Source: an uncultured delta proteobacterium
GTDB taxonomy: Bacteria; Desulfobacterota; Binatia; UBA9968
Assembly (NCBI GenBank): GCA_963816145.1
Contig: CAWFJP010000023.1
Span: forward strand, 11,290-75,289
DNA: 64,000 nucleotides
Direction of reading: 5' to 3'
Part shown: piece after piece, positions 3,785 to 43,470 of the stretch
Layout: every line of letters begins with the position of its first letter
How positions within the stretch are numbered: position 1 is the first letter of the stretch
Made by a program: the position numbers and the translations under genes
The notes under the pieces: model-generated
Told to the model about the DNA's origin: nothing
Database searches by the model: none
What the model saw: the letters and a program-made list of their open reading frames with translations, nothing else

Positions 3785-3943
3785 GGGTCGGAGTGTCGAG
3801 GGGAAGATCACTCGTCCCTTTTTCACAGGAGTTAACGGAGACAACGAGAGTTTCTGATGAAATTTTCTCTGTTACCTCCGTTGCCTCCTGTTAGTTTCCC
3901 CGCTCTTCATCCCTCGACCCTCGACCCTCGACACTCGTCACTC
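3785..3943 (+). repeat. Family-A nested palindromic element (complete)
   Basis: Outer arm gggtcggagtgtcgagggg. Inner hairpin acaggagttaacggagacaacgagag (3825-3850), 16-nt AT-rich loop, ctctgttacctccgttgcctcctgt (3867-3891). Outer arm ccctcgaccctcgaccctcgacactcgtcactc. Lies between pqiB and pqiC. Confidence 0.85.
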
Positions 3944-3956
3944 TTACCTTTTTAGC

Positions 3957-5630
3957 TCACTCCTCAGTCTTGCCCCTTATCAGCGCTTCGGGATGACGCT
4001 CCAAAAAGTCGGTCAATACGCGCAATGACCTGGCGGCGCGGGTGATCTCCTGCAGTGCTTCGCGCAGTTCCTGTTGCGCGGGAGCGTCCTTGCCGACGAG
4101 AGTCGCATCGGCATTCTTGAGCACCCCGTCGGCCGAGGTAATCGCGCGGCGGATTTCTTCGACCGTGGTTTTCAAGCCGGGCGTGACTTCCGCGTCGATG
4201 CGGTTCACCGCCTTGTCTGCGCTCTTCAGTGTTTGGTCGAGCGAGACGAGCACCTTCGTGACATCGGCGCCGATCGCTTCGAGCGGCAGCTTGTCGAGCT
4301 TGGCGACGATGCCGGTGATTTTCGCTTCGAGGTCACTAACGGTACTCGGCACCACCGGCAACTCCGGCGCTTCCTGGCGCCAGTCGATCTTCACTTTGGG
4401 AGCGTCGGGGAAGAAGTCAAAGGCGACAAAGAGCTGACCGGTAAGCAGATTGCCGCTGCGGAGCTGCGCGCGCAACCCACGTTGCTCGACCAGGCGCTGC
4501 ATCAGCGCGTGGCGTTGCTGCGAGCTCCCCTCAAGCATTTTGCCGACCGCCGCTTGGTTCGAGCCCAAGTGGGCTAACAGACGCTCGGGGTAGGAAACGA
4601 CCTCGACCCGCCCTCGAATTCTCATCGTCGCCGGGTCGATCGCGAGACCGACGTCGGTGACCTCACCTGCCGGCAGCCCGAGCAGCGTGACCGGCGCGCC
4701 CACGGACAATCCGCGCAGCGTTTCGTTGAAATACAGCACATAGTGCACTGCGATCGATTCGGGTTGCTTCATCGCCGTGGTCTTGTCAGCGTAGAGGGTG
4801 AAGACCACGTCTGCCGCCGCGGGCTCGGCCGTAGCCGCGAAGGGAGGCGTGTCAAATGCGAGGCCGCCCGCGAGCAGCGCGATTAGCGATTGCGTGCGCA
4901 CTTCCACGCCGCCCGCGCCGATGGATGCATCGATTCCGCTCGCGTTCCAGAAGCGTGTGCCGGGTTTGACGTACTTGTCGTAGGGCGCGTTGATGAAGAC
5001 CTTCATTTGGACTGACTTGCCGTCGGCGGCAAGTTCATAAGCGATCACCTGCCCGGCCTGCAACTGGCGGTAGTAGATCGGCGAACCGATACCCAGCGAG
5101 CCGAGGTTCTCCGCCTTGAGGACAAACTGCCGGCCCGGCTGACCGCCGGTGATGATCGGTGCCACCTCGAGTCCGGTGAACTGGCGCTGCTGCTTTTCGG
5201 ACTTGCCGACTTCAAAACCGATGTAGTTGCCCGACAGCAGAGTGCCGAGGCCGGATACCCCGCTCAGCGTAACCCGCGGCTCAACGACCCAGAACTTGGC
5301 ATCCTCGACCATTAAGCCAGCTTCGGCCTTGTCTATCTTCGCTGTCACCTCTACCTTCGAATGGTCGGCGGAAAGCTTCACCGCCGTCACCTGGCCGATG
5401 TTCACATCCTTGTACTTGACGAAAGTCTTGCCGGCCTCGAGGCCCTCCGCAACCTTGAAGACGATGGTGATGGTCGGCCCTTCGCTCATGATGCGCTGGA
5501 TGGCAATGCCAATGGCCACCACCGCTGCAAGAATCGGGATGATCCAGACGACCGAGATCCGTGTCCCCTTCTTCCGCACCACCGTAGCCTGCGGCAGTTC
5601 GTCACGATTGATATTCTCAGCCATGCGCAC
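3957..5630 (-). CDS. pqiB: PqiB-like multi-MCE (MlaD) domain protein
   Basis: 557 aa with an N-terminal TM anchor (VVWIIPILAAVVAIGIAI) and repeated MCE-like segments (e.g. VKYKDVNIGQVTAVKL, YYRQLQAGQVIAYEL). The C-terminal region is helical. The gene overlaps the end of pqiA. Confidence 0.85.
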   Translation of the reverse strand: MRMAENINRDELPQATVVRKKGTRISVVWIIPILAAVVAIGIAIQRIMSEGPTITIVFKVAEGLEAGKTFVKYKDVNIGQVTAVKLSADHSKVEVTAKIDKAEAGLMVEDAKFWVVEPRVTLSGVSGLGTLLSGNYIGFEVGKSEKQQRQFTGLEVAPIITGGQPGRQFVLKAENLGSLGIGSPIYYRQLQAGQVIAYELAADGKSVQMKVFINAPYDKYVKPGTRFWNASGIDASIGAGGVEVRTQSLIALLAGGLAFDTPPFAATAEPAAADVVFTLYADKTTAMKQPESIAVHYVLYFNETLRGLSVGAPVTLLGLPAGEVTDVGLAIDPATMRIRGRVEVVSYPERLLAHLGSNQAAVGKMLEGSSQQRHALMQRLVEQRGLRAQLRSGNLLTGQLFVAFDFFPDAPKVKIDWRQEAPELPVVPSTVSDLEAKITGIVAKLDKLPLEAIGADVTKVLVSLDQTLKSADKAVNRIDAEVTPGLKTTVEEIRRAITSADGVLKNADATLVGKDAPAQQELREALQEITRAARSLRVLTDFLERHPEALIRGKTEE

Positions 5631-6258
5631 CCTCCGAGTTTGCCAGCGAATCCCAAATCAGCCGGGGGTCAAAGGACTCCGCCGCGATCATCGTCAACAC
5701 CACCACCGCCGCGAAAAAAACTACCCCCGCACCGGGCTCGACAAACATCAACGGCTGGAGCTGTACCAGGGCAACGGTGAATGTGTCGACGAAAACATCC
5801 AACATCGACCAGCGCCCGATGAACTCGACCATTCGATACAGCCGGGTGCGCTCACCGCTGCTGCCGCGCGAGCCGCGCTGCACCGTGATCAAGAGATAGG
5901 CCAGCGCCACTAGTTTGCCGAGCGGGATTATCACGCTGGCGATCAACACGATGATCGCCAGCGGCCAAGATCCCGAGGTATAGAGAAATACCACCCCGCC
6001 CATGATGGTGTCGGAGTCGGTGGAACCGAGCGTGGTGGTGCTCAGCACCGGCAGCACGTTGGCGGGGATGAAACAGATTGCCGCGGCGATGACCAGCGCC
6101 CAGGTGTACTGGATGGAATGGTGGTGCCGCCACTCGAGCTTTCCGCCGCAGCGCGGGCAGTAGCCCGGCTCGGCCAAATCGGCCGGCCGCGACAGCAAAG
6201 CGCAGGTTTCGCAGGAAACCAGTCCCGCCTGGGCGGCAGTGAGTGGAGTGGTGCTCAT
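5617..6258 (-). CDS. pqiA: PqiA-family membrane protein (second half-size gene)
   Basis: 213 aa. N-terminal zinc-ribbon CETC...CPRCG followed by 4 TM helices. Paralogous to ORF 6713-7357. Confidence 0.8.
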   Translation of the reverse strand: MSTTPLTAAQAGLVSCETCALLSRPADLAEPGYCPRCGGKLEWRHHHSIQYTWALVIAAAICFIPANVLPVLSTTTLGSTDSDTIMGGVVFLYTSGSWPLAIIVLIASVIIPLGKLVALAYLLITVQRGSRGSSGERTRLYRMVEFIGRWSMLDVFVDTFTVALVQLQPLMFVEPGAGVVFFAAVVVLTMIAAESFDPRLIWDSLANSEGAHG

Positions 6259-6312
6259 TGTATTACGTTGCTTAATCGTTTGCGCAGCTTTCGCAAAGTT
6301 TCCGCGGCTGGA

Positions 6313-6333
6313 GGGCGCGATGAATCGCGCCCC
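6313..6333. repeat. Short GC hairpin (GGGCGCGA-TGAA-TCGCGCCC type REP)
   Basis: gggcgcgatgaatcgcgcccc, a perfect 8-bp stem. Confidence 0.55.
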
Positions 6334-6541
6334 GACAAATCAATGTCCTTTCCGCCTTTTGCGTTTTGTTGTAAAACCTCGCGTTCCGAATCTCCTCAGG
6401 ACAACGGCTTGAACGATTTAAACGACTGGAACGTGCTTTCTATTGGAAATTGCGATCCAAAAACATTAACACCAACATGTTTGGCATAACGTGCAGCCTA
6501 AATATTCCGCAAGTCGAAAGTTCTCGGATTCGGATATGCCT

Positions 6542-6712: not shown

Positions 6713-7357
6713 CTATGCTCCCTCTGCTCCGGTCGCGTCGTTACGCGGCAGCGCTTCCCCTTCGGCCCACTCAACCCGCTGCCAGACCTCGCGTGGATGG
6801 AAGGTGACCATGATCGCGGCAAACAGGACGATTAGGCCGCCCACCGCATACAACCCGATGCCGGGTTCCACCGTTGCCAACTCGGCGATCTTGATCAGTG
6901 CGACCAGGATGCCTAGCATCATCACCTCACTCATCGACCAGGGCTGCATGGAGTGCGCCCAACGCAACATTTCACCGACCCAATGCGGCGCGGGTGGCCG
7001 CCTGGCAGCGATTAGAACCGTTAGCATGAATATTACGTAGCTTGCCGGCGCGATCACCGCGCAGAATCCAACGATCATAGCCGTCACATCCTGCCCTTGC
7101 AGCCACATCTCGTAGGCGCCGCCGATGATGGTCGTGCTCGCTTGGCGCCCCACGGCCGAAAGCCCCATGAGCGGTGACGTATTAGCGACAATCAATACGA
7201 TGGCGGCCGTGAGCGTGAGCGCCAGCGTGCGGTCGATCGAATCGGTTGGCGCCGAGGCGAGAATGTGGCCACAGCGCAGGCATCGAGCCTTACCGCCGGG
7301 CGGGAGTTCCGGCAAGCGCTGGAGCAAATCGCAATCGGGGCAAGCAATGGTTTCCAT
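6713..7357 (-). CDS. pqiA: PqiA-family membrane protein (first half-size gene)
   Basis: 214 aa. Zinc-ribbon CPDC...CLRCG plus 4 TM helices. First gene of the pqi operon. Confidence 0.8.
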   Translation of the reverse strand: METIACPDCDLLQRLPELPPGGKARCLRCGHILASAPTDSIDRTLALTLTAAIVLIVANTSPLMGLSAVGRQASTTIIGGAYEMWLQGQDVTAMIVGFCAVIAPASYVIFMLTVLIAARRPPAPHWVGEMLRWAHSMQPWSMSEVMMLGILVALIKIAELATVEPGIGLYAVGGLIVLFAAIMVTFHPREVWQRVEWAEGEALPRNDATGAEGA

Positions 7358-7403
7358 CGGCGGGTCGAATCATCAGTAACGAGCGTCAAGTGACGCGGGA
7401 CAT

Positions 7404-7436
7404 CTCCCCTCGACACCCGACATGCGCTCCCTCAAC
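7404..7436 (+). repeat. Family-A heptad fragment
   Basis: ctcccctcgacacccgacatgcgctccctcaact. Confidence 0.4.
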
Positions 7437-7937
7437 TCAAGGGGTGGACACGATATAGACGACTTGGTTTCCCTGAAAACCGGCCTTATAGAAAACGCCG
7501 CCGCAGTTAAAATAATTGATGCCGTTGATCAATGTTGAATTGCAATTGGGCGGCAGGTACGGCACCGTCGAGCCGATCGGCAGGGCAGCGGCAGCTCTCT
7601 GGGCATTCGCAGCGGCAGCGGCAGCGTTTGCCGCAGCTGCCTGAGCGGCGGCGGCATTGGCGGCAGCAGCCTGCGCCGCGGCGGCGTTCGCGGCCGCCAT
7701 ATTCGCGGCCGCCGCGTTGGCCGCGGCAGCGTTGGTGGCGGCAGCATTCCATGCCGCTTCTCGATACATCGACCGGCGCGCCACTCCGGCGAAAGACAAC
7801 GGCGTCCAGGGCATGCCGATGATCGCCTGTGCATCACCGACGAAGCTCAGCGTCAATGATGCATCAGGTTGGAAACTGGCTATGGGCAGATAGAATAGTG
7901 ACGCAGTCATTACTACAGCTAGTAAAGTCCTTTTCAT
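7437..7937 (-). CDS. Secreted low-complexity Ala/Asn/Gln-repeat protein with Cys-containing C-terminal domain
   Basis: 166 aa with a signal peptide (MKRTLLAVVMTASLFYL). A ~55-aa run reads AANAAAANAAAANMAAANAAAAQAAAANAAAAQAAAANAAAAAANAQRAAAA. C-terminal module is YLPPNCNSTLINGINYFNCGGVFYKAGFQGNQVVYIVSTP. Confidence 0.55.
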   Translation of the reverse strand: MKRTLLAVVMTASLFYLPIASFQPDASLTLSFVGDAQAIIGMPWTPLSFAGVARRSMYREAAWNAAATNAAAANAAAANMAAANAAAAQAAAANAAAAQAAAANAAAAAANAQRAAAALPIGSTVPYLPPNCNSTLINGINYFNCGGVFYKAGFQGNQVVYIVSTP

Positions 7938-9144: not shown

Positions 9145-9164
9145 TATTGGCCTTTAGTCCAATA
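9145..9164. promoter_or_regulatory. Candidate operator, 20-bp palindrome TATTGGCC-TTTA-GTCCAATA
   Basis: One arm mismatch. Lies ~110 bp upstream of the DUF2092-like gene start (9037). Confidence 0.45.
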
Positions 9165-11663: not shown

Positions 11664-11976
11664 AGGGATTCCTAAAGCCTACCAATCTCACTCGAACTGC
11701 TGGCCGCAGTCGATCGGCGACCCGCGTCAGCCGTTCGCCGTCACCTGCAATCGGGCTCAGCATACTAACCTAAAGGCGAAGCGGAGCCGTCTGTCGCAAT
11801 TCTTTTATGATCCGATCGTTCACGCTTCGCTCGACGCCGCTAGTCCTCACGTAATTTCAACGGCGATCAGTTGCTCGGCAACGCGATCGTTTCCAGTTGT
11901 TCCAGCCGCTTGAGCGCTTCGGCCATTTTTATCGTTTGATAGCCGATGCCCGCGGCGTGACTCACTTATGATCCGT

Positions 11977-13514
11977 CTAGCCGCCGCTCGACGCCGCCGT
12001 CATCTTCTCGATCACCTGGTCGAGGCTGAAGCTCGCCGACTTCTGCCGGGGCGGGAACTCCTTGAAGGTGCTCAGGAACTCGCCGACGAAGGCCTGCGCG
12101 GGCACGAGCAGGTAGACGCGCCGAAACATCCAGTCGTAATAGGTATTCGACGTGATCTGCGCTTTCTCGTACGGGTCCGTCCGCAGGTTGAAGATAAACG
12201 GCACGCGCAGAGTCACGAACGGTTCCTGCCAGATTTGGAACGTACCCGGAACGCGCTGCTCCATGAACATCATCTTCCAGTTGTCGTAACGCAGCGCCGC
12301 AACGTCGCCATCGTCGGTGAAGTAGAGGAAGGCTTGGCGTGGGCTCTTGGCTTCCTTGCCCGTGAGGTGTGGCAGCAGGTTGTAGCCATCGAGGTGGACC
12401 TTGTAGGTCTTCTTGCCAATCTTGTGGCCCTTCTTCAGCTTCGCCGCGATGTCAGGCTCGCCGGCCACCGCCAGGATGGTCGGGAACCAGTCCTGGTGGC
12501 TGATGATCTCGTTCGATACCGACCCGGCGGCAATCCTGCCGGGAAAGCGCACCATGCAGGGCACGCGATACGCGCCCTCCCAGCTCGAGTTCTTCTCGTT
12601 CCGGAAGGGCGTCGTGCCTGCATCCGGCCAGGTGTTCATATGCGGCCCATTGTCGGTGCTGTACTGCACGAACGTGTTGTCTGCGATGCCAAGCTCGTCC
12701 AGGAAGTCGAGCATCTCGCCGATGTGCTTGTCGTGGTCGATCATTACGTCGTGGTACTCAGATTGCCAGCGGCCGGATTGGCCACGGCTCTCCGGCTTCA
12801 CATGCGTCCACGCGTGCATGTGCGAGGTGTTGAACCAGACGAAGAACGGCTCGCCGGCGTCGTGGGCGGCCTGAATGAACTTCTTGGCGGCTGCGAGAAA
12901 CTCCTCGTCGCACGTCTCCATGCGCTTCTTGGTCAGGGGGCCGGTGTGAGAGGTCTGACGGTAGTCGAGGTAGACGAACACGGAGGCACGGCGCAGCGGC
13001 GACACCGTGTTGTTGGTCACACGCGACGTGAATACTTCGCCGTTCGGCACGAGCACCAGCCGGCCGTCGTAGGTCCGGATGTGCGTGACGCGAACCTCAA
13101 TCTGCTCGACCGTCCCCTCAGTCTCGCCAACGACGATCTGATCGCCGATCTCGAAGGTGTGCGTTAGGAGTATCAGCAATCCGCTGACGAAGTTCGAGAT
13201 GATGTCCTTTAGCGCAAAGCCCAGGGCGACGCCGCCGAGGCCCAGACCCGTGACAACGGCCTGCGCGTTGACACCCAGCACATCAAGAGCGACGAAGACA
13301 CCGACCGCCCACACCGTGTAGTACGACACCTGCAGGAGCAGGTTGCGCTGCGTCCGATTCTCGACGCATCCGGCACCGAACAGCGCGACTCGCCGCGCGA
13401 GCCTTGCCAACCCCAGAAAATCAGGAGCACGGTGATTGCTGCGGCGAACGCACGGCCGTGCGCGTGAAAATTCTCCATATGCTCCTTGGTGATATTATTA
13501 AATTGATCGTACAT
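11977..13514 (-). pseudogene. Chimeric relic: 5' part of a small MscS-type channel gene fused in-frame to the 3' two-thirds of an arylsulfatase gene
   Basis: Residues up to ...RRASVFVYLDYRQT form an MscS pore helix and beta-domain (GLGGVALGFALKDIISNFVSGLLILL). From GPLTKKRMETCDEE... the ORF is colinear with residues ~245-575 of the intact sulfatase at 24385-26112 (PFFVWFNTSHMH, STDNGPH, TPFRNEK). The catalytic N-terminal sulfatase part is absent. An additional frameshift at ~13402-13416 separates the first 36 codons (ORF 13209-13514). Confidence 0.6.
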
Positions 13515-13997
13515 TTTCTTTTTGAAGGCTTCGTTTAAATGCTGTCAAAGTACTTGATGATTACGCCGGCTACTTGTTCCCCAGTCGCAGTTCCATTCAA
13601 TTGTTGGCCTGCTTTAATCGCCTGCACCAACTTTTCGTTTACCCGAATGCCAAAACTGGCCAAGATAATTTTGTCACTAAGTGAGGAAACCGCGAGGCAA
13701 AAGCAGCAACCACGACTCCCCCCAAGAGGCCCCGGCAACGGTCGATTTTTCACGGGCATTTTGTGCTAATAGAACTTGGTGTAAGACTTCGACCTGCTCA
13801 TCTAACCAACAACGGCAGAGCCGGAGATGATTTGAGCTCGCCCTGACCGGGAAAATCGAAGAGCAACAACCTGTAATCCTCGAAAATAGCTTACCACGGG
13901 TCTCCATGCGGCATGGTTTGCTGAGCACGTTCCAAATCAGGCTCGATCCGGCCTGATAGGGATACTTCTCGAAATCGACGAAAAATTCCTTAGCTTA

Positions 13998-14060
13998 CCG
14001 ATCACTGATCACTCGCCAACGACAAGATCACCGATTACTATAATTTCCCCCTCGTCCCCC
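13998..14060 (+). repeat. Family-A tail fragment
   Basis: gcttaccgatcactgatcactcg...ccccctcgtccccc resembles the accgatca...ccctcgac tail seen at 19170-19215 and 20130-20176. Confidence 0.35.
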
Positions 14061-18959: not shown

Positions 18960-19225
18960 ACACGAGTTAAACATGAAAAACTGCGGTTATTTGAAATCAA
19001 TCTCTGTTCTCTCCGTTGCCTCCTGTTGAGTTTTCTTCTCCCTCGACACTCGACCCTTTCTCACAGGAGATAACGGAGGAAACAGAGGTTAATTTAAATC
19101 ATCTCCGTTCTCTCCGTTGCCTCCTGTGTAAAATCAAATCTGAAACCTGACATCCGAATCCCAACCTCCTCGATCACTGTTCACCGATCATTCATCTTCT
19201 CCCTCGACACTCGACTCTCATCACT
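18960..19225 (+). repeat. Family-A composite: degenerate hairpin plus complete hairpin with long tail
   Basis: Right arms ctctgttctctccgttgcctcctgt (19002-19026) and ctccgttctctccgttgcctcctgtg (19103-19128). Left arm cacaggagataacggaggaaacagagg (19062-19088). The tail ends ccctcgacactcgactctcatcactc. Confidence 0.85.
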
Positions 19226-20177: not shown

Positions 20178-20217
20178 TTCGCCCGGCGCAGTTCGCGGGG
20201 CGGCAACGCGAATTGGT

Positions 20218-27353: not shown

Positions 27354-30300
27354 TTATTTCTGGGTTTGCCCTGGTGTATAGCCCGAGATTTTGGTCAATC
27401 CCAGTTTTTTCATGCGGAACCTGAGCGTCGATGGATGAAGTTTTAGCATCGCCGCCGAACCGTTAGGCCCATTGATACGCCACCCGGTCGCCTCAAGCGC
27501 CCGCAGAATGTGGTCCCGCTCTGCTTCGTTCAACGACGATACGCTGGTCGATTCGTAGGAATGCTTAACCTCGCTGAGAGCTGTATTCGTTGCTTGAAGT
27601 AGCGGTTCAGGCAAGCGCAAAACGCCATCCGATGAGACGATCACCGCCCGCTCGATCACGTTTTGCAGTTCGCGGATGTTACCCGGCCAGTTATACTCCG
27701 TGAATGCGCGCATCACTTGCGCCGGCACTTCGCTGATAGTCTTGCCCAAACGTTCCCCGAGCTGTCGCGCATAATGGCTTACCAGCAATGGAATGTCTTC
27801 CCGTCGTTGCGACAGCGGGGGAATGGTAATCGGATAGACATTGAGCCGATAATAAAGATCCTGGCGGAACCGGCCCGCCGAGACCTCGTCATGCAATTTG
27901 CGGTTGGTTGCCGCAATGACTCGGACCTTGACCTTGATCGTGCTCGAACCACCGACCCGCTCAAACTCGCCTTCCTGCAGCACGCGCAAAAGTTTCGCTT
28001 GCGTCCCGGCGGGCAGCTCCCCGACTTCATCGAGCAGGATCGTGCCACCGTCGGCGAGCTCGAATCGGCCTTTGCGTTGGCGCTCCGCGCCTGTAAAGGC
28101 GCCTTTTTCATGGCCAAACAGTTCGCTCTCGACGAGAGCCTCAGGCAGCGTTGCGCAGTTCACCTTTATGTATGGCCGGTCGAATCGGGAACTTCTGTCG
28201 TGGATCGCGCGCGCAATGAGTTCCTTGCCCACGCCAGTCTCGCCCTGCAACAGCACGGTGGCGTCGGTCTTAGCCACTTGCTCCACCCGCGTGAGCACAT
28301 ATTTCAAGGCGTCGCTCTTGCCGACGATTTCTTCGAAGCCCTTTACCTCGGAAATCTCCTCCTTTAGATAGAGGTTTTCCTCCTCGAGACGCTCTTTAAG
28401 GCCGCGGATCTCGTCGAAAGCCGCGTTGAGATCATGCTCCGCCTGCTTGCGCGCGGTGACATCGCTGATCGAAGCCAAAACGAACAGTCCTCGCGGCGTG
28501 CGCAGCGGACTAAGGCCGATTTCGAGCGGGACTTCACTGCCGTCTTTGCGGCGGCCGAAAATTTCACCATTGGCGCCCATCGGGCGCAATTGTGGATCGG
28601 CAACGTAATTTTGCCGATCTCGCAAATGATTGACGCGGAACCGCTCGGGAATCAGCATTTCGATGGGTTGGCCGATCAGCTGGCCGCGCGAGTAACCGAA
28701 AAGCGCCTCCGCGGCCGCGTTGACCGAACTGATAATGCCCGCGCGATCCACCAGGATCATGCCATTGGGCGCCGCCTCGAGAATTTGCCGCGAGCGCTCT
28801 TCGGCCTGCTTGCGCTCGGTAATGTCCAATACCACGCCCATCCGGCGCCCTGCAGCGCCGCTGGATTCATTACTGGCGCGACCGCGCGTCAGCACCCATC
28901 GCTCGCTGCCGTCGGGACCGACCACGCGAAATTCCCCTTCATAGGAGCTGCCGGCCTGTTGCATGCGTGCAACCTCGGCGGCGACACGGGCTCGATCATC
29001 AGGATGAACCGCGCCGAGCAGATCTTCGAATCGGAGCGCATCGTTCGCTGCTAAGCCGAACCATGTCCGCAAGCGCGGATTGGCCCACACTTCACCGCGT
29101 GCTAAATCGCGCACCCACAGGCCGAGCTCGCCGGCTTCGGTGGAGAGTTCCAAGAATTCCTGGCTCTCCCGAAGTTGAGTCTCCGCGCGACGGCGCCGCC
29201 TGCGTTGCAAAAGCAAACCAGAGATCATTGCCGCTTGAACCAGAATGGTGGCGAGTACGGCGATGATGTACCAATGGTATTGCTCCCAGATTGAAGGCGA
29301 ACGAAATCGAATAACTCTGCCTTGGGGTAATCGTGATTCGTCGATGCCCCAGCGCTTCAACTCGCGCCAGTCGTACTCTGGTGCCGCTGGTTTCAAGAAT
29401 ACGGGCTTGATACTACTTGCGGATGTCCCGTTAAGAATCCGGAGCGCTATTTGGGCCGACTGCCGGCTCACTTCCTGGTACGGAGACAACGGGCCGCCAA
29501 CGATGCCCCCGCCGAGTTGATGATCAAAGATTCCGAAGATCGGGGCGTTACTATGTTGTCGAAGCACATCGAGAGCTCTTTCCTGTTCGTAGGGCACACC
29601 GGCCGCGTCAACAACCAGTAGAAAATACACGATTGCTGAGTCAGGCGGGAGCCTGGACAAGCGCCGGTCTAGCTCCTCGAATGAGAGCTCATTGAGCCAA
29701 TTGAATTGGACGCGTTTGGTTAAGTGCTGCGTATCCCGGCGGAATTCCGCCTGCCAGTATTTTTCGAAGGGCGAGTTGCCGGTTACGACTTCAATGTTCC
29801 TGGTTTTAGGCAAAATCCGCAAAATGTGTTCGACGATCCCCGCCAGATCCAGACTGATCCCGAACGCCGTAGCATTGCTGCGGTTTAGCTCGCCTACACG
29901 CCGATTGTCGGCGGCCACCACTAGCATGGGAACCTTCGGCAACAGAATGTCGCCGTGTCGCTGCAAGAAAAACATCGCCGGAGCGCCGATCGGCACAATC
30001 AGGTCCGGGGGTCGTTTAGTGAACAGGGCGCGCAAGTAGTTGACCAAGGGAGTTTCCGAACCGGCTTCGGCAAACATCGTGGATTCCAAGGAAGCCTCGA
30101 GAAAATCGATAGGGGCCGCCGATTGCCGGGCCAGTTCCGCGCGAAACGTCGTCGATACAGCTGTGAACGGCGCAAAATTCCGACCAAACGAATGTAAGAT
30201 TAATACCCGTCTGACTTGCGGCTTGTCGGTAGCTTTGCCCTCTTTGACCGCAGGAATGTTCTTCGCATCCTGCGCCCTCGCAGGCAAACCTAGAATTAGT

Positions 30301-30476
30301 AAACACACCGCGACTAGCAGCAACCGATGCGAAAAATGAAATAGGGGTGAGATTCTAGTTTTTTGCGGACGTGCCCGCCGCGCAGGCAGTCCCAAACTTG
30401 AGGTAGGGGCAAATTCCATTGCGAAACTCTTAGCCGGGTCGACGCCCGGCAATATACCGAGTGGTGCGCGCAACAA
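27354..30476 (-). CDS. Membrane-anchored sigma-54-dependent transcriptional activator (periplasmic PBP-like sensor, TM, 2 PAS, AAA+, HTH)
   Basis: 1040 aa. N-terminal signal anchor, ~330-aa periplasmic domain, TM helix ([21 protein letters not shown]) and two PAS/PAC units (DITERK, DVTARK). The sigma-54 interaction domain has Walker [15 protein letters not shown] and [11 protein letters not shown]-terminal Fis-type HTH. The true start may be the internal ATG at 30419. Confidence 0.9.
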
Positions 30477-30604: not shown

Positions 30605-30624
30605 TATTGGACCTTAGTCCAATA
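30605..30624. promoter_or_regulatory. Candidate operator, TATTGGAC-CTTA-GTCCAATA (perfect arms)
   Basis: Lies 130-185 bp upstream of the sigma-54 activator gene. Confidence 0.5.
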
Positions 30625-30644
30625 GGCGGACGTGCCGCGATTAT

Positions 30645-30661
30645 CTCTGTTACCTCCTGTT
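30645..30661 (+). repeat. Family-A right-arm fragment
   Basis: ctctgttacctcctgtt only. Confidence 0.35.
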
Positions 30662-30796: not shown

Positions 30797-30816
30797 TATT
30801 GGACCTTGATCCAATG
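30797..30816. promoter_or_regulatory. Candidate operator variant, TATTGGAC-CTTG-ATCCAATG
   Basis: Two arm mismatches. Lies 2 bp downstream of the REC gene stop. Confidence 0.35.
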
Positions 30817-31609: not shown

Positions 31610-32059
31610 GTGACGAATCTCGACCGCCAGAATTGTCAGTGCGGCGATGACTCAGGCGAAGACACGAAATCCTTGCCGAGACTGACGCTGCTCGCGCAAA
31701 GCCGCCAAGTTTCACCGGATGAACTGCCAGACGAGAAAGCGCGCAAAGCCGGACTCTCGCCGAAGTGCATACTGAAAGCCGATAAAGACAGCGGTCGGAT
31801 TGTCATCGATAGCGAAACGACGCTAACCGGCATCCCACCCGAAGCTTGGGATTACCGACTCGGCAACCGCTCAGCGCTCGAATGGATTCTCGACCAGTAC
31901 AAAGAAAAGAAACCGAAGGACCCGACGATCCGCGAAAAGTTCAACACCTACCGATTCGCCGACTACAAAGAAAAAGTAATCGATTTGTTAATGCGCGTAA
32001 CCACCGTGAGCGTCAAGACCGTTTCCGTGATCGACGCGATGAAACGCGCTTCTCGCTGA
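31610..32059 (+). pseudogene. 3'-terminal relic of a type ISP/IIG restriction-modification enzyme
   Basis: Only the last ~100 codons look native: IVIDSETTLTGIPPEAWDYRLGNRSALEWILDQYKEKKPKDPTIREKFNTYRFADYKEKVIDLLMRVTTVSV. I recall this as the conserved C-terminal tail of >1000-aa type ISP enzymes. No upstream methylase or helicase domains are present. Confidence 0.6.
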
Positions 32060-32254
32060 TTAGCAACTATACGTTCAAAGCATCTGGGATGTTCACTGCC
32101 TGACCTCTGTTTAGAGATAGAGCGGCGGACGGCCCTTGCCGGTGATCACGTCAGTCTGGCGGATGGCTATCATTTACGCCGAGGCCGCAACGAGAAATGG
32201 ATTGGCGGAAGTGCTTGAATGGAATTGGCTAACGATAACGAGGATCGAGTAATA

Positions 32255-32303
32255 AGAGTCGAGGGGGAATCGATCTCCCCCTCGACTCTCCACCCTCGTC
32301 ACT
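32255..32303 (+). repeat. Family-A outer-arm-only palindrome
   Basis: gagtcgagggggaatcgatctccccctcgactc, followed by caccctcgtcacttc. Confidence 0.5.
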
Positions 32304-32311
32304 TCTCCCGG

Positions 32312-34563: not shown

Positions 34564-34790
34564 AGAGTCGAGAAAAAGAATGTCGAGTGATCTTCCCCCT
34601 CGACACCCGACTCTCTTCCCTCGACACTGAACACTGATTGCGCTCTTCCACCAACACGTCCCTCAACACTCGACACTTTTCCACAGGAGCAAACAGAGGC
34701 AACGAAGTTCGTCCCAAAAAATCCATCTCTGTTATCTCCGTTACCTCCTGTTAGTTTTTCCATCCCGTCGACACTCGACCCTCGACACTT
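34564..34790 (+). repeat. Family-A complete element
   Basis: gagagtcgag...tgtcgagtga; ccctcgacacccgac; hairpin cacaggagcaaacagaggcaacgaag (34682-34707) / ctctgttatctccgttacctcctgt (34727-34751); tail cgtcgacactcgaccctcgacactt. Confidence 0.85.
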
Positions 34791-34791
34791 T

Positions 34792-35241
34792 TTATTTCAT
34801 CCTCACGAAGTACACATCATAACGCTGCTGCTCGACCGCCTGAAAATAGATTCCCCGGAGTTGGTCGGGCTCCCAATCGTAGGTCAGCGTGTAAGTGCTG
34901 CCGGGGTAATTCGGCGCGCGCAGCTCGACGAAGACCTTCACTGTCGAGCCATCGCGTGACGCATCAGCTTTGGCGATGTTGATCGGCTTGGGGTTGAGAT
35001 AGACCGCGTCGATTTTGCCGTTGGCATCGACAGCCTTGATCTCCAAAATGTAACCGCCGTCGGGCCGGACCCAGCGGCCGTTCAGCGCGTCGAAATCATT
35101 GCCGCCTCCGCGCAAAAACGCAGCGGCGGCAGCGATCCCAACCAGCAGCACGAGCGTGATAGCGATAAAAAGTTTGCCTCGCCCGCCCGACTTGGCGCGA
35201 GGGTCGGGAATTCGCAATGTCTTGTGCTTAGTCTTGCTCAT
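34792..35241 (-). CDS. Membrane-anchored periplasmic protein, unknown function
   Basis: 149 aa. Basic N-terminus and TM anchor (LFIAITLVLLVGIAAAAAFL), then a beta-rich domain. Confidence 0.55.
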   Translation of the reverse strand: MSKTKHKTLRIPDPRAKSGGRGKLFIAITLVLLVGIAAAAAFLRGGGNDFDALNGRWVRPDGGYILEIKAVDANGKIDAVYLNPKPINIAKADASRDGSTVKVFVELRAPNYPGSTYTLTYDWEPDQLRGIYFQAVEQQRYDVYFVRMK

Positions 35242-35791: not shown

Positions 35792-36076
35792 AATCTCCGT
35801 TAACTCCGTTCCCTCTTGTAAAAACATTCGTTCCGTTAAACTCTTTTCATTGAACAGGAGGAAACAGAGAAACCGGAGTTTTTTAAATCCGTCTCTGTAA
35901 TCTCCCTTCGCTCCTGTTCAAGTCTCTTCTCTGCGCGTTATCTGACGCTCGTCACTTCTTTACACGAGACAACAGAGGAAACCGAGGTTTGTGAAAAAAT
36001 TCTCCGTTCACTCTGTTTGCTCCTGTTAAAGTCCCCATCCTTTGTCACTCGACACTCGACACTCGTCCCTCGACCC
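35792..36076 (+). repeat. Family-A: three tandem units (one right arm plus two hairpins)
   Basis: Hairpins at 35853-35918 and 35962-36027. Tail gtcactcgacactcgacactcgtccctcgaccc abuts the porin stop codon. Confidence 0.8.
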
Positions 36077-36079
36077 TTC

Positions 36080-38499: not shown

Positions 38500-38519
38500 T
38501 ATTGGACTTTAGTCCAATA
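38500..38519. promoter_or_regulatory. Candidate operator, TATTGGAC-TTTA-GTCCAATA (perfect arms)
   Basis: Lies 260 bp upstream of the TPR-lipoprotein/porin gene pair. Confidence 0.5.
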
Positions 38520-38926: not shown

Positions 38927-39047
38927 GTCGAGGGGCTAGTGACAAATGGAAAACCAGAGACACGAAAAACGGCGAACAAAATCTGGCATTTCCCCTCGAC
39001 ACACCAATCCCGACACCTTTTCCACTCCTCCCTCGACACTCTCTCGC
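38927..39047 (+). repeat. Family-A element, strongly degenerate
   Basis: gtcgaggggctagtgac...ggaaaaccagagacacgaaaaacgg...cccctcgacacaccaatcccgacacc...ccctcgacactctctcgc. Confidence 0.45.
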
Positions 39048-39054: not shown

Positions 39055-39795
39055 TCAGTAAACCATTCGCGCTTTGCGCACCTGATCGGCGCGAATCCAT
39101 CCCTGCTTGGCGAAAAACTCCGAGAGATAGCGCGCGACCTGATCGCCGCTCGTTGCGGCCATTCGAGCGACATCCGATTTGTAGGTCTTCACGCCTGAGA
39201 CCGCGGCGTTGGCGACCACCATGCCTGCGGTTACGCCGCCGCTAACGATCGCTCCGGCGCCGAGCATGGGCGCCGCGCCGGGCATCTTGCCACTGTCGGA
39301 TTGAGTGGTGAAAGCGAGCAGCTTGCGACCGTCTGGCCCCTGATAAACTTGAACCTGACTCTCCACCGTGGAGGCTCCGTTGCCGAAGCCAACCGCCAAA
39401 CGACGCAGCGGATTGCCTTCGTCGACGGTCATAAACTGACCGTCGATCAGCAGATCGGTCCCCCCGGCCTTGGTGTCGCGGCCGACCCGCTCGACGACGA
39501 ATCCGAGCGGCTTCAAGGCGTCGACAATTTCCTCGGCCAAAGCATCTTTCACTTCCCGCGCCAGAACACGCTCCCGCTCGGAAGCGTCTTTGATGGTCGG
39601 CTGTTGGCGCATGATGCCCTGGTACTCCTTAACTTCGCCCTCGCTCACGGCGAAGTCGAGAACAAGTATACGGCTAGGCCGCGGCAGATTGGTATCAGCA
39701 ACGCGCGCGGCACGGCGAATACCCGTCTGAGCGCAGGCCGCGGTTAAACACAATAGGAGTACGCCGAAATAACCACCCGTTCGGTTCGCTAACAT
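39055..39795 (-). CDS. Lipoprotein (DUF4410-like, tentative)
   Basis: 246 aa with lipobox LTAACAQ. A Gly/Ala-rich segment (GAAPMLGAGAIVSGGVTAGMVVANAAVSG) follows. Family name is from memory. Confidence 0.55.
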   Translation of the reverse strand: MLANRTGGYFGVLLLCLTAACAQTGIRRAARVADTNLPRPSRILVLDFAVSEGEVKEYQGIMRQQPTIKDASERERVLAREVKDALAEEIVDALKPLGFVVERVGRDTKAGGTDLLIDGQFMTVDEGNPLRRLAVGFGNGASTVESQVQVYQGPDGRKLLAFTTQSDSGKMPGAAPMLGAGAIVSGGVTAGMVVANAAVSGVKTYKSDVARMAATSGDQVARYLSEFFAKQGWIRADQVRKARMVY

Positions 39796-39881
39796 ACAAC
39801 ACCTCCTCCTCTTGTTTAACGGGTCATCGCGTAATCGAGTGGGCGCTGACTTAATGGCAAATTACTCTCCCATGGCCGGTT

Positions 39882-39978
39882 CCTCCCTTTCGCAAAGGGA
39901 GGTTAGGAGGGATTTTTCATGGCTTGAAAGATCGTCTTCTGCACAAAATCCCCCCAACCCCCCTTTTCTAAAGGGGGG
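39882..39978. repeat. Family-C triple-hairpin element, intergenic copy
   Basis: cctccctttcgcaaagggagg-ttaggagggattttt...caaaatcccccc-aaccccccttttctaaagggggg. Confidence 0.8.
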
Positions 39979-40130
39979 TGAAACCTACAAGAACAGCATT
40001 TCTCAACAAATTTCACCCACTCGATTACGTGAAGAGCCTGTTTAACTTCCTCAGAGCGACGAACCTACGGCATCAAAATGCCACAAAATGGTTAGCTGAA
40101 GAAACAAACTCTGCTTGAGCGACGTCAGCG

Positions 40131-40964: not shown

Positions 40965-41097
40965 TCTTCCCTCGCCACTTCCATCTTTACAGGAGGCAAC
41001 AGAGAAAGCAGAGAGAGTCTTAAAAATTTCTCCGTGATCTCCGTTTGCTCCTGTTAAATCCCTCGACAACCGACACTCGACCCTCTTCACTCGTCAC
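40965..41097 (+). repeat. Family-A complete element
   Basis: tacaggaggcaacagagaaagcagagagag (40988-41017) / ctccgtgatctccgtttgctcctgtt (41030-41055) / ccctcgacaaccgacactcgaccctcttcactcgtcac. Confidence 0.8.
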
Positions 41098-41588
41098 TTC
41101 ACCAGCGGCACACCCTGGGCGATGTCGTACCGGATGACGGCGCGAATCTTGTTCTCGATCTGCAGGTAACGCGCGACTTTGACCATCGGCAGCGCTTTAG
41201 CGAGCTTGGGCGCGAAGGTGCTCTTGAGATTGACCTCCGCCTGTTCGATGGCGTTGGCCTCCTCGATCAGCTTCTTTGCCTTGTCGTCGGTCAGCGACTT
41301 ACTACGGAAGTCAGCGGCGTAGATCTCTAGCACATTAACGATGCGCTGATTGATCTTGCGCAATTCCTTTTGATATTCGTCATAGATCGGCCAGAAGTTC
41401 TTCGCCTCCGACTCGGTCAATTCCATGTTGCTCGCCACCAGCAGCTTTTTGTCCGCTTTGATCTTGTCACGCAGGATCTGCATGTTGTCCGCTGGCTTGT
41501 CCTGCGCCGCCAAATTCATCGATGGGAGCCCCAACAGCACGATCGCCACTGCAACGCGGATTGTTTTTTTCAATAAATCGATTCTCAT
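41094..41588 (-). CDS. Periplasmic all-helical protein, paralog 1 (Spy/CpxP LTXXQ-like, tentative)
   Basis: 164 aa with a signal peptide. ~55% identical by eye to ORF 42437-42928. Shared motif: ELTESEAKNFWP(I/V)Y(D/E)(E/D)YQ ... YLQIEN. Confidence 0.65.
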   Translation of the reverse strand: MRIDLLKKTIRVAVAIVLLGLPSMNLAAQDKPADNMQILRDKIKADKKLLVASNMELTESEAKNFWPIYDEYQKELRKINQRIVNVLEIYAADFRSKSLTDDKAKKLIEEANAIEQAEVNLKSTFAPKLAKALPMVKVARYLQIENKIRAVIRYDIAQGVPLVK

Positions 41589-41621
41589 TGCTTCTCTCCT
41601 TCAGGTTTCATTTGTCAGCAA

Positions 41622-41710
41622 CCGAGGGGCGAGTGTCGGGTGTCGAGGCGAATCCCACTCGACCCTCGTCACTCGTCACCCTCTTTTTTCTCACTCGACC
41701 CTCGACACTT
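41622..41710 (+). repeat. Family-A outer arms without inner hairpin
   Basis: ggggcgagtgtcgggtgtcgaggcg...cactcgaccctcgtcactcgtcaccc...ctcactcgaccctcgacactt. Confidence 0.65.
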
Positions 41711-41721
41711 GTGTCGGCCGC

Positions 41722-42303
41722 CTACGGATTTGGATTGATCTTGGTAATCTTGGTTCCCTGGATGCCCATGCCGCCCATCAGTCCCTTTTGGTCAAAGATG
41801 AATGCATACACACCTTTTTGCAGGGTCGTGGTCGATAAGTTCTTGCCGAATCCTTCGTCCAACACCACCAGGCTAGGCCCGACCCCCAATTCGAAGCCGG
41901 CAGTGTTGTCGAGATACTGCAACGACGCATTATCCATAAAAAACAGCACGTAGCCGTAGGCTTGAATGCCGGCTTGAAATCCATACGACACCGCGAGCGA
42001 ACGGTAATAGGCAACGGTCTTGCCGCGTTTGCGTAAAGCGCCGTCGCCGAATTGGCCGGCGAAGATGAATCCGCCTTTGACGATGCTCGGGAAGACCAAC
42101 ACTCCGACCGCCTTGTCCGCCAATGCCTTGGCGGCCGGATAGTTTTTAGTGAGTTTCGCCACCGTCGCCCTCACGTCACGGTCGATCTCGCTCGCACTCG
42201 CCGCCTGCGCCGCAGCCGGACTCAAGACATGGAAGGTCAACAGCATCAATGCCAGCCCGACGATTAAGTTGGGCATCTTGGTATTTCGGTTATTTGCTCT
42301 CAT
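41722..42303 (-). CDS. SYLF (Ysc84/DUF500) lipid-binding domain protein, secreted
   Basis: 193 aa with a signal peptide. VLVFPSIVKGGFIFAGQFGDGAL...SYGFQAGIQAYGYVLFF...GFELGVGPSLVV matches the SYLF domain pattern. Confidence 0.8.
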   Translation of the reverse strand: MRANNRNTKMPNLIVGLALMLLTFHVLSPAAAQAASASEIDRDVRATVAKLTKNYPAAKALADKAVGVLVFPSIVKGGFIFAGQFGDGALRKRGKTVAYYRSLAVSYGFQAGIQAYGYVLFFMDNASLQYLDNTAGFELGVGPSLVVLDEGFGKNLSTTTLQKGVYAFIFDQKGLMGGMGIQGTKITKINPNP

Positions 42304-42351: not shown

Positions 42352-42433
42352 TACTGGAGGAAACCGAGGTTTTCGAAAATGCTCCGTTAACTCCGTTTGC
42401 TTCCGATTAGACTCCCTCGACCCTCGACCCTGA
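42352..42433 (+). repeat. Family-A element, short left arm
   Basis: tactggaggaaaccgagg / loop / ctccgttaactccgtttgcttccgatt / ctccctcgaccctcgaccc. Confidence 0.7.
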
Positions 42434-42436
42434 TCC

Positions 42437-42928
42437 CTACTTCGCCAACGGCACCGTGGTCGCGAGATCATATTTCAGCAGCACGCGGTACTCGTTTTCG
42501 ATCTGCAGATAACGCGCGGCCTTCTTGGCCGGCAGCGCTTTCATCACCTTGGGGATGAAGGCGGTGCGTTGCTTGACGTCGTCCTGTTCAAGGGCGATCC
42601 ACTCGTCGAGCAGCTTCTTGGCTTTGTCGTCGGTGAGCGACTTGCTGCGGTAGTCCGCGGCGTAGCTCTTCAACAGCGCGCCGAGACGCTCATTGATTTT
42701 CTGCAAATCGTTTTGGTAGTCCTCGTACACCGGCCAGAAGTTTTTGGCTTCCGATTCGGTCAACTCCATATATTTGGAGACAATCAATTTTTTGTCCGCC
42801 TTGAGTTTCTCGTGGACGATTTCCAGATTGTTGGCAGGCTTATCCTGCGACCGCGCAGCTATCGGCGCACTTCCGAGCGCAGCCACGAATAAAACCGCCA
42901 AAAACTTTGTCCCTGTCTTGTTCTTCAT
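42437..42928 (-). CDS. Periplasmic all-helical protein, paralog 2 (Spy/CpxP LTXXQ-like, tentative)
   Basis: The ATG at 42928 has GGGAGGG 7 nt upstream. Signal peptide MKNKTGTKFLAVLFVAALGSAPIAA. Paralog of 41094-41588. Confidence 0.65.
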   Translation of the reverse strand: MKNKTGTKFLAVLFVAALGSAPIAARSQDKPANNLEIVHEKLKADKKLIVSKYMELTESEAKNFWPVYEDYQNDLQKINERLGALLKSYAADYRSKSLTDDKAKKLLDEWIALEQDDVKQRTAFIPKVMKALPAKKAARYLQIENEYRVLLKYDLATTVPLAK

Positions 42929-42956
42929 CTCGACCCTCCCTTTTTCGATGTTTATA

Positions 42957-43379
42957 TCACGAATCAATATTTCCCTTGACAGCTTGGCGTCCCGGCGCCG
43001 AGATCAAGTAGCCGAGCATCACCGCCGGGACGATCGCCCAAAGCAGTGCCCGCACCGGGGTGTCGCCTTGAATTATGACACTCAGCACCAGCAAAAAATT
43101 GACGATCGCCAAGCAGATTCCCAACCACCGCGCCCAATGCCGCTGCAGCAATACGCCGCATGCAAAAGCGACAAATAAGAGCGCTAGAACCGCCACCAGC
43201 ATGCCCCTGCCGATGGCGATCAGTCCAAGCAACGGCAGTAACAGCAGGCCCTGCCCCATCATATCACTGCCGACGTCGAACCACTGTAGCGCACGCAGAA
43301 CAGCAGCGATGCTTTGAAGCACCGCCAGCACGGCAACGACCTTCAAGCCCAATGGATTATTTGGCAGTACCGATACCAT
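42957..43379 (-). CDS. Four-TM membrane protein, unknown function
   Basis: The start is taken at the ATG at 43379 (MVSVLPNNPLGLKVVAVLAVL...). The upstream 25 codons of the track ORF translate a repeat element. Confidence 0.5.
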   Translation of the reverse strand: MVSVLPNNPLGLKVVAVLAVLQSIAAVLRALQWFDVGSDMMGQGLLLLPLLGLIAIGRGMLVAVLALLFVAFACGVLLQRHWARWLGICLAIVNFLLVLSVIIQGDTPVRALLWAIVPAVMLGYLISAPGRQAVKGNIDS

Positions 43380-43394
43380 GGTGTCCCTAAAGAA

Positions 43395-43470
43395 GTGTCG
43401 GGTGTCGAGTGAAAAAAGCGCCCGACCCCACGTCTCTCGCCGACCCCTCGACACTCGACACTCGTCCCTC
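43395..43470 (+). repeat. Family-A outer arms without inner hairpin
   Basis: gtgtcgggtgtcgagtg...cccctcgacactcgacactcgtccctc. Confidence 0.6.

Follow-up and report, generated by a model that had tools for sequence, protein, structure and literature searches.

Paired sites of short tandem repeats, placed on opposite strands at a variable distance from each other, have been described in Geobacter metallireducens (Aklujkar et al. 2009, PMC2700814). Class 2, the "putative global regulator binding sites" (Gmet_I2xx), consists of three tandem copies of TCTCCGTS[Y], while class 1 has four copies of GTTGCTYN and class 3 five copies of MTYCTGA; the authors proposed binding of IHF/HU. In the excerpted entries of Table S4 of that paper, the class 1 and class 2 sites all lie in 3'/5' or 3'/3' spacers, some of them operon-internal, and one site in the same excerpt separates the genes for pyruvate dehydrogenase E1 alpha and beta. 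Here, we describe intergenic repeats in a 64,000-nucleotide stretch of an uncultured delta proteobacterium of the Binatia, a soil or sediment bacterium to judge by JGI, ENA and Logan contigs (assembly GCA_963816145.1, contig CAWFJP010000023.1, positions 11,290 to 75,289 of the forward strand; hereafter the window). Two modules predominate: the A module, a hairpin with arms of three 9-mers, and the H module, made of arrays or hairpins of the heptad GWCGAGK (CTCGWCM on the plus strand). The repeat system is real, statistically overwhelming and of a known general kind. New are its stop-anchored sense polarity, the interchange of modules at one slot and an arm that is shared across phyla.

By published consensus alone, the A arm (YCTCYGTTN x3) agrees with class 2 of G. 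metallireducens at 7 of the 8 specified positions; position 8 is S in class 2 and T in the A arm. Both are intergenic pairs of triple repeats on opposite strands with variable spacing, and the class 2 sites are probably the published relative of the A module. An earlier note on this DNA, made from the letters alone, did not recognize a described family. This still holds in so far as Rfam 15 gives no gathering-score match across the window (at E<=10 only generic miRNA-precursor hairpin models appear, far below their thresholds) and no description of these elements was found in the literature, where papers containing any of six 13-16-mers deal with unrelated mammalian or viral topics; it does not hold for the resemblance of the A arm to the Geobacter consensus. 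The heptad GWCGAGK falls outside the published G. metallireducens classes, and the polarity relative to the upstream gene, the adjacency to stop codons and the multi-phylum spread noted here are unreported for those sites.

In Escherichia coli, a repetitive extragenic palindromic (REP) sequence reportedly stabilizes the cistron upstream of it. REP sequences and bacterial interspersed mosaic elements (BIMEs) influence mRNA stability, and the BIMEs of E. coli bind IHF, gyrase and Pol I (Delihas 2011, PMC3184786). As had been proposed for the window, its elements are REP/MITE-like, non-coding sequences: they share with the co-transcribed REP/BIME of E. coli a high copy number, an extragenic location often within operons and after genes for exported proteins, imperfect palindromy, and clusters of alternating orientation with linkers. 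Such BIME-like runs are seen in the arms at 19002-19127 (+, -, +), in a 132-nt periodic array of one relative (L102) and in three alternating arms of another (L185). Unlike the simple palindromes of 20-40 bp in E. coli, however, the arms measure 25 nt and consist of three 9-mers with 2-nt internal loops. The sense polarity is strict, and a REP-associated tyrosine transposase (RAYT) was seen neither among the window open reading frames (ORFs) tested nor among the genes tabulated for L125, a strain that shares 98% identity with the window from 31.6 to 52.6 kb. A REP in the strict sense carries an unpaired GTAG or CGTC at one end of a stem-loop of 20-40 bp (Di Nocera 2013, PMC3733652). Since this tag is absent from the hairpin ends and flanks, the elements are not REPs in that sense. 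The 25-nt inverted arms and hairpins of 55-82 nt do agree in size and terminal inverted repeats (TIRs) with a MITE, a miniature transposable element bounded by inverted repeats, but neither a target-site duplication nor a clean empty site was found for A or H modules, and the flanks contain no direct repeat.

Short tandemly repeated repetitive (STRR) sequences, reportedly intergenic tandem heptanucleotides, occur in cyanobacteria. TAACTGA repeats are known from Beggiatoaceae, Cyanobacteria and Bacteroidetes (MacGregor 2015, PMC4679880). Like the repeats described here, these are short intergenic heptamer arrays (2-6 units or more) of a single orientation in distant phyla, with a suspected post-transcriptional role via a single-strand-binding protein (PMC4679880). 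The heptad unit is different, though, and the TAACTGA arrays, located just ahead of start codons, are almost never inverted pairs, whereas ours follow stop codons and commonly form hairpins with an inverted array. Pneumococcal BOX elements and the Chunjie MITE of G. uraniireducens are likewise modular, with variable internal units and very stable predicted RNA folds, and are tolerated in operons; the BOX modules are 45-60 nt long and unrelated in sequence, and Chunjie has 21-bp TIRs and 9-bp direct repeats, while no target duplication was found here. An integron attC site was also considered and rejected: core-like ATTTAAC/GTTAAAT ends are present in a few copies only, most copies ending in CTCCTGTGAAGAAG, no integrase domain occurs in the ORFs tested or in L125, and gene order is conserved in relatives.

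The earlier note had described all or part of one composite element at 17 or more loci. The repetition itself is far above chance. In the window the 16-mer CTCCGTTGCCTCCTGT has 13 matches at up to two mismatches against 0.06 expected, and its five exact copies are all on the plus strand. A 25-nt model of the A arm (CTCYGTT-NN-CTCYGTT-NN-CTCCTGT, up to three mismatches) finds 21 arms against none in 20 shuffles, and the combined hairpin-plus-heptad pattern matches four times with 0 expected. The heptads stand in tandem (CTCGACA, CTCGACC, CTCGTCA), their dimers CTCGWCNCTCRWC occurring 20 times on the plus strand and once on the minus strand. The notion of a single element, on the other hand, has to be given up. 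The A and H modules occur independently, at 19.1 and 20.1 kb in the company of two minor modules, F (CTGAAACCTGACA) and S (GATCACTG), and the "composite" is a stack of separable module families, because some loci are heptad hairpins without a 9-mer hairpin. This is the case at 32255, 38927, 41622 and 43395. Loci 9 and 7404 are merely two to three heptads, and locus 13998, mainly tandem GATCACTG, is a marginal member.

In the A module, each arm of the 55-82 nt hairpin holds three 9-mers (YCTCYGTTN x3 on the pyrimidine side), according to the form ACAGGAG..AACRGAG..AACRGAG / AT-rich loop / CTCYGTT..CTCYGTT..CTCCTGT. As tandem 7- or 9-nt units are combined with their inverted complement, a module folds as a hairpin. 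The helices of the A hairpin are 7 bp long and spaced by mostly non-complementary internal loops of 2 nt; the terminal loops measure 10-30 nt or hold nested modules. The hairpins start with (A)ACAGGAG and end with CTCCTGT, and are flanked by TTTA/CTA and GAAGAAG. Twelve of the 21 arms in the window are on the plus strand and nine on the minus strand. Each of the latter has a plus-strand arm at most 60 nt further on with which it forms a hairpin, while the five arms without a detected partner (19002, 23028, 30636, 35795 and 42382) are all on the plus strand, three of them (19002, 23028 and 42382) facing a degenerate 5' arm. In total, 11 A hairpins are found, in composites of up to about 260 nt. 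All arms and A hairpins, spread over 43 kb of the window, are located between ORFs.

On the gene (minus) strand the order of the parts is G-rich purine heptads GWCGAGK, A hairpin and, often, further heptads together with an inverted heptad run, which closes a second or outer stem. The A hairpin then has three purine 9-mers as its 5' arm and three pyrimidine 9-mers as its 3' arm. It is nearly symmetric; what gives the element its polarity is the heptads, the arms that lack a partner and the better preservation of one arm of the hairpin. The purine arm is ACAGGAGGCAACGGAGAGAACAGAG. Outer heptad arms enclosing a hairpin, a feature of the earlier description, do appear in the predicted fold of the gene strand at 3785-3942, which has -74.4 kcal/mol and z = -5.7. 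Modules are found solo, stacked, nested or in alternating runs. In the relative L130 the loop of an A hairpin contains a TGGAAKA-type hairpin, and in Opitutaceae (L025, L089) it contains GATTAGCG-type 9-mers.

The polarity of the elements tracks the upstream gene and its stop codon. All polar copies in the window share one orientation, as had been noticed before. They had also been called antisense to the genes, which is true of the pyrimidine arm on the plus strand, but the mRNA reads G-rich heptads and then the hairpin. A scan of metagenome contigs with the hairpin-plus-heptad pattern yielded 55 loci of relatives. With the element oriented, 34 of the neighboring genes on the heptad side lie on the opposite strand, against 3 that share its strand. 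A sense ORF (at least 60 codons, or at least 40 where a contig end cuts the frame) ends within 70 nt upstream of 48 of 63 composites, at a median distance of about 16 nt and typically at 9-18 nt; grouped by sequence at 95% identity, these stop-adjacent composites form 46 clusters, and at 65% they form 25. Similarly, intergenic heptad arrays with a same-strand upstream gene outnumber the others by 68 to 15 at the loci and by 12 to 1 in the window, the exceptions being mostly partner arms of hairpins. The distance from the element to the next start codon varies at the metagenome loci, and the element thus belongs to the gene before it. Written in the direction of the mRNA, the consensus is: stop codon, short purine linker, (KGWCGAG)n, GGAAATTCAATTTA, hairpin, GAAGAAG and more heptads, with about 6-25 nt between the stop codon and the G-rich heptads. 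In some operon spacers of relatives, only ~10 nt separate the hairpin from the next Shine-Dalgarno sequence.

Strand composition and predicted folding follow the same direction. The G/C ratio of the sense strand is 1.57 in element spacers, 1.03 in coding sequences and 1.13 in other spacers, and exceeds 1 in 15 of 15 element spacers. The summed folding energy of the 11 window hairpins is -270 kcal/mol in sense and -241 kcal/mol in antisense, and the sense strand is the more stable one in 32 of 46 module-bearing spacers (Wilcoxon p = 1.5e-4), because sense G.U pairs become A.C mismatches in antisense. G.U is the commonest pair at column 13/62 of the A-hairpin alignment. In the 10 nt after a hairpin, T residues average 1.5 on the sense strand and 3.7 on the antisense strand. 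The U-tract of an intrinsic terminator is absent after the hairpins in sense, and a terminator consensus scan does not call them, in agreement with the earlier statement that they are not canonical terminators. An intrinsic terminator facing the antisense direction was considered as well, but a tail of 3.7 U per 10 nt is too weak to claim one.

The members found in the window, all of them read in the sense of the minus strand, are the following.

5-29, minus strand: H module of ~3.5 tandem heptads that follows the Bestrophin-like gene 103-858 at 77 nt from its stop.
3785-3942, minus strand: full composite between pqiB (3957-5630) and pqiC (3148-3747), kept in the orthologue L168; read with the genes, it starts with H array 3905-3942, continues with A hairpin 3825-3891 and ends with distal and inverted heptads 3785-3820, which close the outer stem.
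7403-7425, minus strand: two heptads, a partial H module, 16 nt after the stop of gene 7437-7937.
13993-14060, minus strand: marginal member with tandem GATCACTG (S) and CCCCTCGTCCCCC, neither A nor typical H.
18960-19225, minus strand: BIME-like cluster of A hairpin 18960-19026 (degenerate 5' partner arm), heptads 19040-19056, A hairpin 19063-19127, F 19140-19159, S 19172-19190 and heptads 19201-19225.
19920-20180, minus strand: H hairpin 19920-20010, A hairpin 20021-20087, F 20100-20119, S 20132-20150 and heptads 20160-20180.
22950-23108, minus strand: inverted heptads 22950-22975, A hairpin 22986-23052 (one arm degenerate) and H array 23065-23108, which abuts the stop of gene 23102-23872.
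24160-24273, minus strand: small heptad hairpin 24160-24188 and A hairpin 24192-24273 (four 9-mers per arm).
30636-30660, minus strand: solo, unpartnered A arm of three 9-mers, upstream of the sigma-54 activator gene 27354-30476.
32247-32305, minus strand: H hairpin (AGAGTCGAGGGGGA / TCTCCCCCTCGACTCT) followed by extra heptads, with convergent genes on either side.
34564-34789, minus strand: H array 34765-34789 (6 nt past the stop of gene 34792-35241), A hairpin 34683-34751 and, distally in gene sense, H arrays/hairpin 34564-34680.
35795-36077, minus strand: H array 36039-36077 (6 nt past the OprB stop), A hairpins 35962-36026 and 35854-35917, solo arm 35795-35819.
38927-39040, minus strand: long-looped H hairpin that follows the DUF4410 gene 39055-39795.
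40989-41100, minus strand: H array 41060-41100, which follows the stop of gene 41094-41588, and beyond it A hairpin 40989-41054.
41620-41710, minus strand: H array and H hairpin between Ysc84/SYLF (41722-42303) and gene 41094-41588.
42352-42436, minus strand: H heptads 42414-42436 (9 nt past the stop) and short A hairpin 42352-42406.
43395-43470, minus strand: H hairpin after the DUF2950 gene 43503-44474.

A homology of 108 nt links the cluster at 18960-19225 with 20056-20163. The flanking genes are ordinary: pqiA-pqiA-pqiB-pqiC, OprB porin, OmpA, SYLF/Ysc84, DUF3300/DUF2950, sulfatases, MscS and a sigma-54 activator. The claim of an operon-internal placement is borne out in the pqiB/pqiC, Ysc84/SYLF and DUF2950 contexts; by domain, the pqi context reads PqiA-PqiA-MlaD/PqiB-ABC_trans_aux/PqiC, with the element between pqiB and pqiC. 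The modules are confined to positions 1-43500, a region coding for exported and envelope proteins. None is present in 43500-64000, where cytoplasmic housekeeping genes are located (RNR, SAM synthetase, PRPP synthetase, NAPRTase, ClpB). A hydrophobic N-terminus is predicted for 43 of 67 genes preceding a module and for 73 of 220 others (p = 8.5e-6, with a crude proxy and non-independent loci). The earlier note had held that a transposase is lacking, and indeed neither the window ORFs tested nor the genes tabulated for L125 include a transposase domain. It was also right about spurious ORFs: 19338-19982 starts inside an element with ..LDTRPSTL.., and in L125 genes of 37 and 48 amino acids are called in element DNA.

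In relatives, the gene order is conserved while the spacers change. At 70-80% identity of the coding DNA, the equivalent spacers carry other modules or none that is recognizable. H, A, W (TGGAAKA/TTCCA), F (GGTTTCAG/CTGAAAC), S and a GTTCAAANC 9-mer array have been seen in orthologous spacers, and the slot at 41620-41710 holds W-type (TGGAAKA) hairpins or no recognizable module; different modules in orthologous spacers imply that modules turn over. Even in the 98%-identical strain L125 the heptad block 34752-34791 beside a stop codon has been replaced by a longer one, and it is a replacement, not an insertion. One orthologous copy, by contrast, is better conserved than synonymous sites: between L168 and the window, third codon positions in the pqiB-pqiC region are 59% and 73% identical and the spacer 85%. 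In this composite 24 of 25 positions agree in the purine arm and 17 of 25 in the pyrimidine arm, and the number of heptads differs.

Other module families were observed in the same orthologous spacers, at 3329-3467 and 4086-4172 of L175, at 12190-12300 of L130, in the L131/L180 spacers and, in reverse-complement coordinates, at 12070-12202 of L145 and 2800-2895 of L133. They comprise arrays of TGGAAKA with inverted TTCCA, GGTTTCAG/CTGAAAC arrays, CAGTGATC arrays and the GTTCAAANC 9-mer array. A 226-bp insertion at 39821-40046, absent from L125, is a classic, recently active MITE. It has an 8-bp direct repeat (TGTTTAAC) and inverted ends (CGTAATCGAGTGGG), folds at -89.8 kcal/mol and is unrelated to the A and H modules; further copies were found neither in the window nor in the fetched loci.

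The A arm is spread over several phyla. A scan with the 16-mer over one genome per species (596 Gb) gave at least 120 loci, with ~270 chance matches expected. Among the matches listed, most show a full arm or full hairpin (TTGAACAGGAGGnAACnGAGnnAACnGAG ... CTCnGTTnnCTCCGTTGCCTCCTGTTCAA), Verrucomicrobiota and Planctomycetota dominate, several Binatia and Sumerlaeia occur, and convergent spacers outnumber divergent ones (hairpins 11 vs 3, solo arms 16 vs 5). Among the matches listed, the sole labelled genome with both A and H modules is L055, a metagenome-assembled genome (MAG) named "uncultured delta proteobacterium". No recurrent protein family stands beside the units among 313 ORFs in 120 loci. 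Viral contigs contain 43 matches to the 16-mer, of which about 13 are genuine elements and the rest chance or coding matches. In a family of IMG/VR contigs (L181, L184, L192-L194, L198, L200 and L216) the 16-mer falls within apparent coding sequence (..CTTCCTCCGTTGCCTCCTGTGCCGCCTCTG..); these are not elements but matches of the chance or coding kind. A few viral copies sit 1-15 nt ahead of an ATG. The idea that solo purine arms are ribosome-binding sites was rejected, as 107 solo arms precede an ORF start almost equally often in either orientation (purine 12, pyrimidine 13).

On the basis of these observations, it is possible to speculate about the role of the elements. We tentatively favor, somewhat short of an even chance, a view in which they are REP/BIME-like, co-transcribed stem-loops of intercistronic spacers and 3' untranslated regions that stabilize the upstream cistron, and in which their orientation is kept by selection against a Rho-loading strand. 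The modules, which stack and nest, would be non-autonomous intergenic repeats. Situated directly past the stop codon of the upstream gene, a module would be transcribed together with it, and in the mRNA the G-rich heptads would precede a long stem-loop that contains G.U pairs and lacks a U-tract. By analogy with REP/BIME of E. coli or with puf-type intercistronic hairpins, this stem-loop could block 3'->5' decay and favor the upstream cistron, mostly one for an exported or envelope protein, while letting transcription of the operon continue. The enrichment of hydrophobic N-termini fits the REP precedent of favoring the exported component of an operon. In the reverse orientation, long C-rich, G-poor and unstructured heptad runs resembling Rho-loading sites would be exposed in an untranslated spacer, and selection would then maintain the polarity.

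Several observations weigh against this interpretation. The RNA-level role that the earlier note had put forward remains plausible, but pairing itself finds no support in covariation: in 31 copies, none of the 16 consensus pairs shows a double, compensatory change, and the variable pair positions of the A hairpin give G.U or A.C instead. Conservation of the arms as sequence would fit protein recognition or recent common descent equally well. The gap between sense and antisense folding is modest, and module-free spacers show a similar trend (33 of 51, p = 0.08). Modules are found in only about a third of the window spacers and are missing from 44-64 kb, which excludes a general gene-end signal. 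Furthermore, module exchange at orthologous slots and replacement between strains resemble mobile or recombining DNA. The flanking genes of the window and of the long contigs are nearly all on one strand, so that on such short, one-stranded contigs a polarity set by replication and one set by transcription would look the same. In other phyla, hairpins oriented by their more stable strand are evenly divided between the two directions with co-directional flanks (5 vs 5, with crude ORF calls).

It could be imagined that the elements are purely selfish small mobile DNA of the MITE or REPIN (REP doublet) type, moved in trans by a transposase from another locus or spread through recombination among copies, and without host function, their polarity merely reflecting the surviving insertions that neither terminate nor polarize an operon. 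This is a serious possibility, if a rather unlikely one. The different modules in orthologous slots and the replaced heptad block speak for it, and so do the nesting of one module in the loop of another, the BIME-like clusters of alternating orientation, arms conserved as sequence without covariation, the genuine copies on about 13 viral contigs and the multicopy sequences of G. bemidjiensis, which occupy 12% of its spacers and were described as non-random insertion. Selfish DNA accounts poorly, however, for the missing target-site duplications and clean empty sites of A and H, both of which the true 226-bp MITE displays, for the lack of a transposase in the window and of a recurrent protein family among 313 ORFs, for an orthologous copy better conserved than synonymous sites and for the same 25-nt arm being kept across phyla. 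The polarity could also be set by replication. IS200/IS605 elements and RAYT-mobilized REPs insert into single-stranded DNA at the fork, and insertion of this kind would leave one orientation per replichore. Each of the 16 successive 4-kb segments has a negative GC skew, which indicates that the whole stretch is probably a single replichore, all polar copies are co-oriented, and no fetched contig has polar composites in both orientations; an apparent case (L145, 6969-7360) was rejected as a chance token cluster. Yet the short distance to the stop codon (median about 16 nt) and the 34:3 strand agreement go further than gene-strand bias alone, which usually gives less than this agreement together with so tight a stop distance, and exceptional copies (L169) are still in sense with the downstream gene. 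An origin of the polarity in replication appears improbable.

That the arms are DNA-level binding arrays for a nucleoid-associated or global regulator such as IHF/HU or gyrase, as proposed for G. metallireducens (PMC2700814), is a poor prospect in our view, although the arms are periodic (7 or 9 nt), conserved as sequence and not as pairing, with a purine arm far better kept than its partner, and E. coli BIMEs do bind IHF, gyrase and Pol I (PMC3184786). Double-stranded sites need no fixed gene orientation or stop adjacency, and the interchange of unrelated units (H, A, W, F, S) at one slot argues against one specific binding protein. Strong stems directly past stop codons would suit terminators or attenuators that act in sense without a U-tract, and so would the preference of other phyla for convergent over divergent spacers (11 vs 3 hairpins, 16 vs 5 solo arms) and the fact that canonical terminators are not enriched in the window (25 found vs 22.8 expected). 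Against this, the U-tract is lacking, many genes have no module at all, and copies lie between the subunit genes pqiB and pqiC and within ~10 nt of the next ribosome-binding site, leaving no room for a promoter; we consider termination very doubtful. A last, speculative reading, with a small chance of being right, takes the interchangeable hairpins (A, H, W, F, S) as a general sense-polar signal after the stop codon that is read by a conserved factor and marks the 3' ends of exported or envelope cistrons. Such a factor might, for instance, recognize the purine arm ACAGGAGGCAACGGAG, which is kept from Planctomycetota to the "delta proteobacterium" MAG. If true, this would point to U-tract-independent 3'-end formation, processing or anti-polarity, a gene-end grammar undescribed in bacteria.

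Some other features of the window lie outside the repeat system. A perfect or near-perfect palindrome of 20 nt (TATTGGACYTTAGTCCAATA) occurs at 9145-9164, 30605-30624, 30797-30816, 38500-38519 and 46516-46535, with 0 expected; it stands in spacers beside regulator genes, is kept in the relative L145 at about 7108-7129, and looks like an operator for a dimeric regulator. On the minus strand, 11977-13410 is one ORF with MscS channel domains in its N-terminal part and sulfatase domains after residue 150, overlapped on the plus strand by an ORF of 399 amino acids (11968-13167); a fusion, a remnant with a frameshift or an error in gene calling could account for this. The S-adenosylmethionine synthetase at 58291-59517 (minus strand) matches Pfam PF01941 (E = 6e-146), which we take to be the archaeal-type family, unusual in a bacterium. 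An ORF of 149 amino acids at 31610-32059 (plus strand) has a match to Type ISP restriction enzymes solely in their C-terminal specificity domain and is probably a gene remnant. About 390 bp (48396-48788) of a PAS histidine kinase gene (47265-51077) have no counterpart in L125, which has two kinase genes. The exported-protein genes of 164 and 176 amino acids that flank SYLF are paralogous (41141-41440 and 42484-42783, 72% over 300 nt), and relatives share this tandem arrangement of paralogues around SYLF. Finally, in-frame tandem repeats are present at 7608-7754 in gene 7437-7937 (GC-rich GCNGCNGC) and at 44829-44935 near the 3' end of the DUF3300 gene, in its C-terminal part; with units of 15 nt and 27/36 nt, these are low-complexity protein repeats and not modules.

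Small intergenic repeats are abundant in many bacteria, and their roles are understood in few model species. The elements described here follow a clean polarity rule, from stop codon to G-rich tandem units to hairpin, and their 25-nt arm, if the likeness to class 2 is one of kinship, ties several phyla to the unexplained "global regulator sites" reported for Geobacter in 2009. For annotation, they are a source of false ORF calls and extended start codons and should be masked. If their polarity reflects avoidance of Rho or a stabilizing 3' structure, they would provide a handle on operon-internal control of expression in uncultured soil lineages and in Planctomycetota and Verrucomicrobiota.

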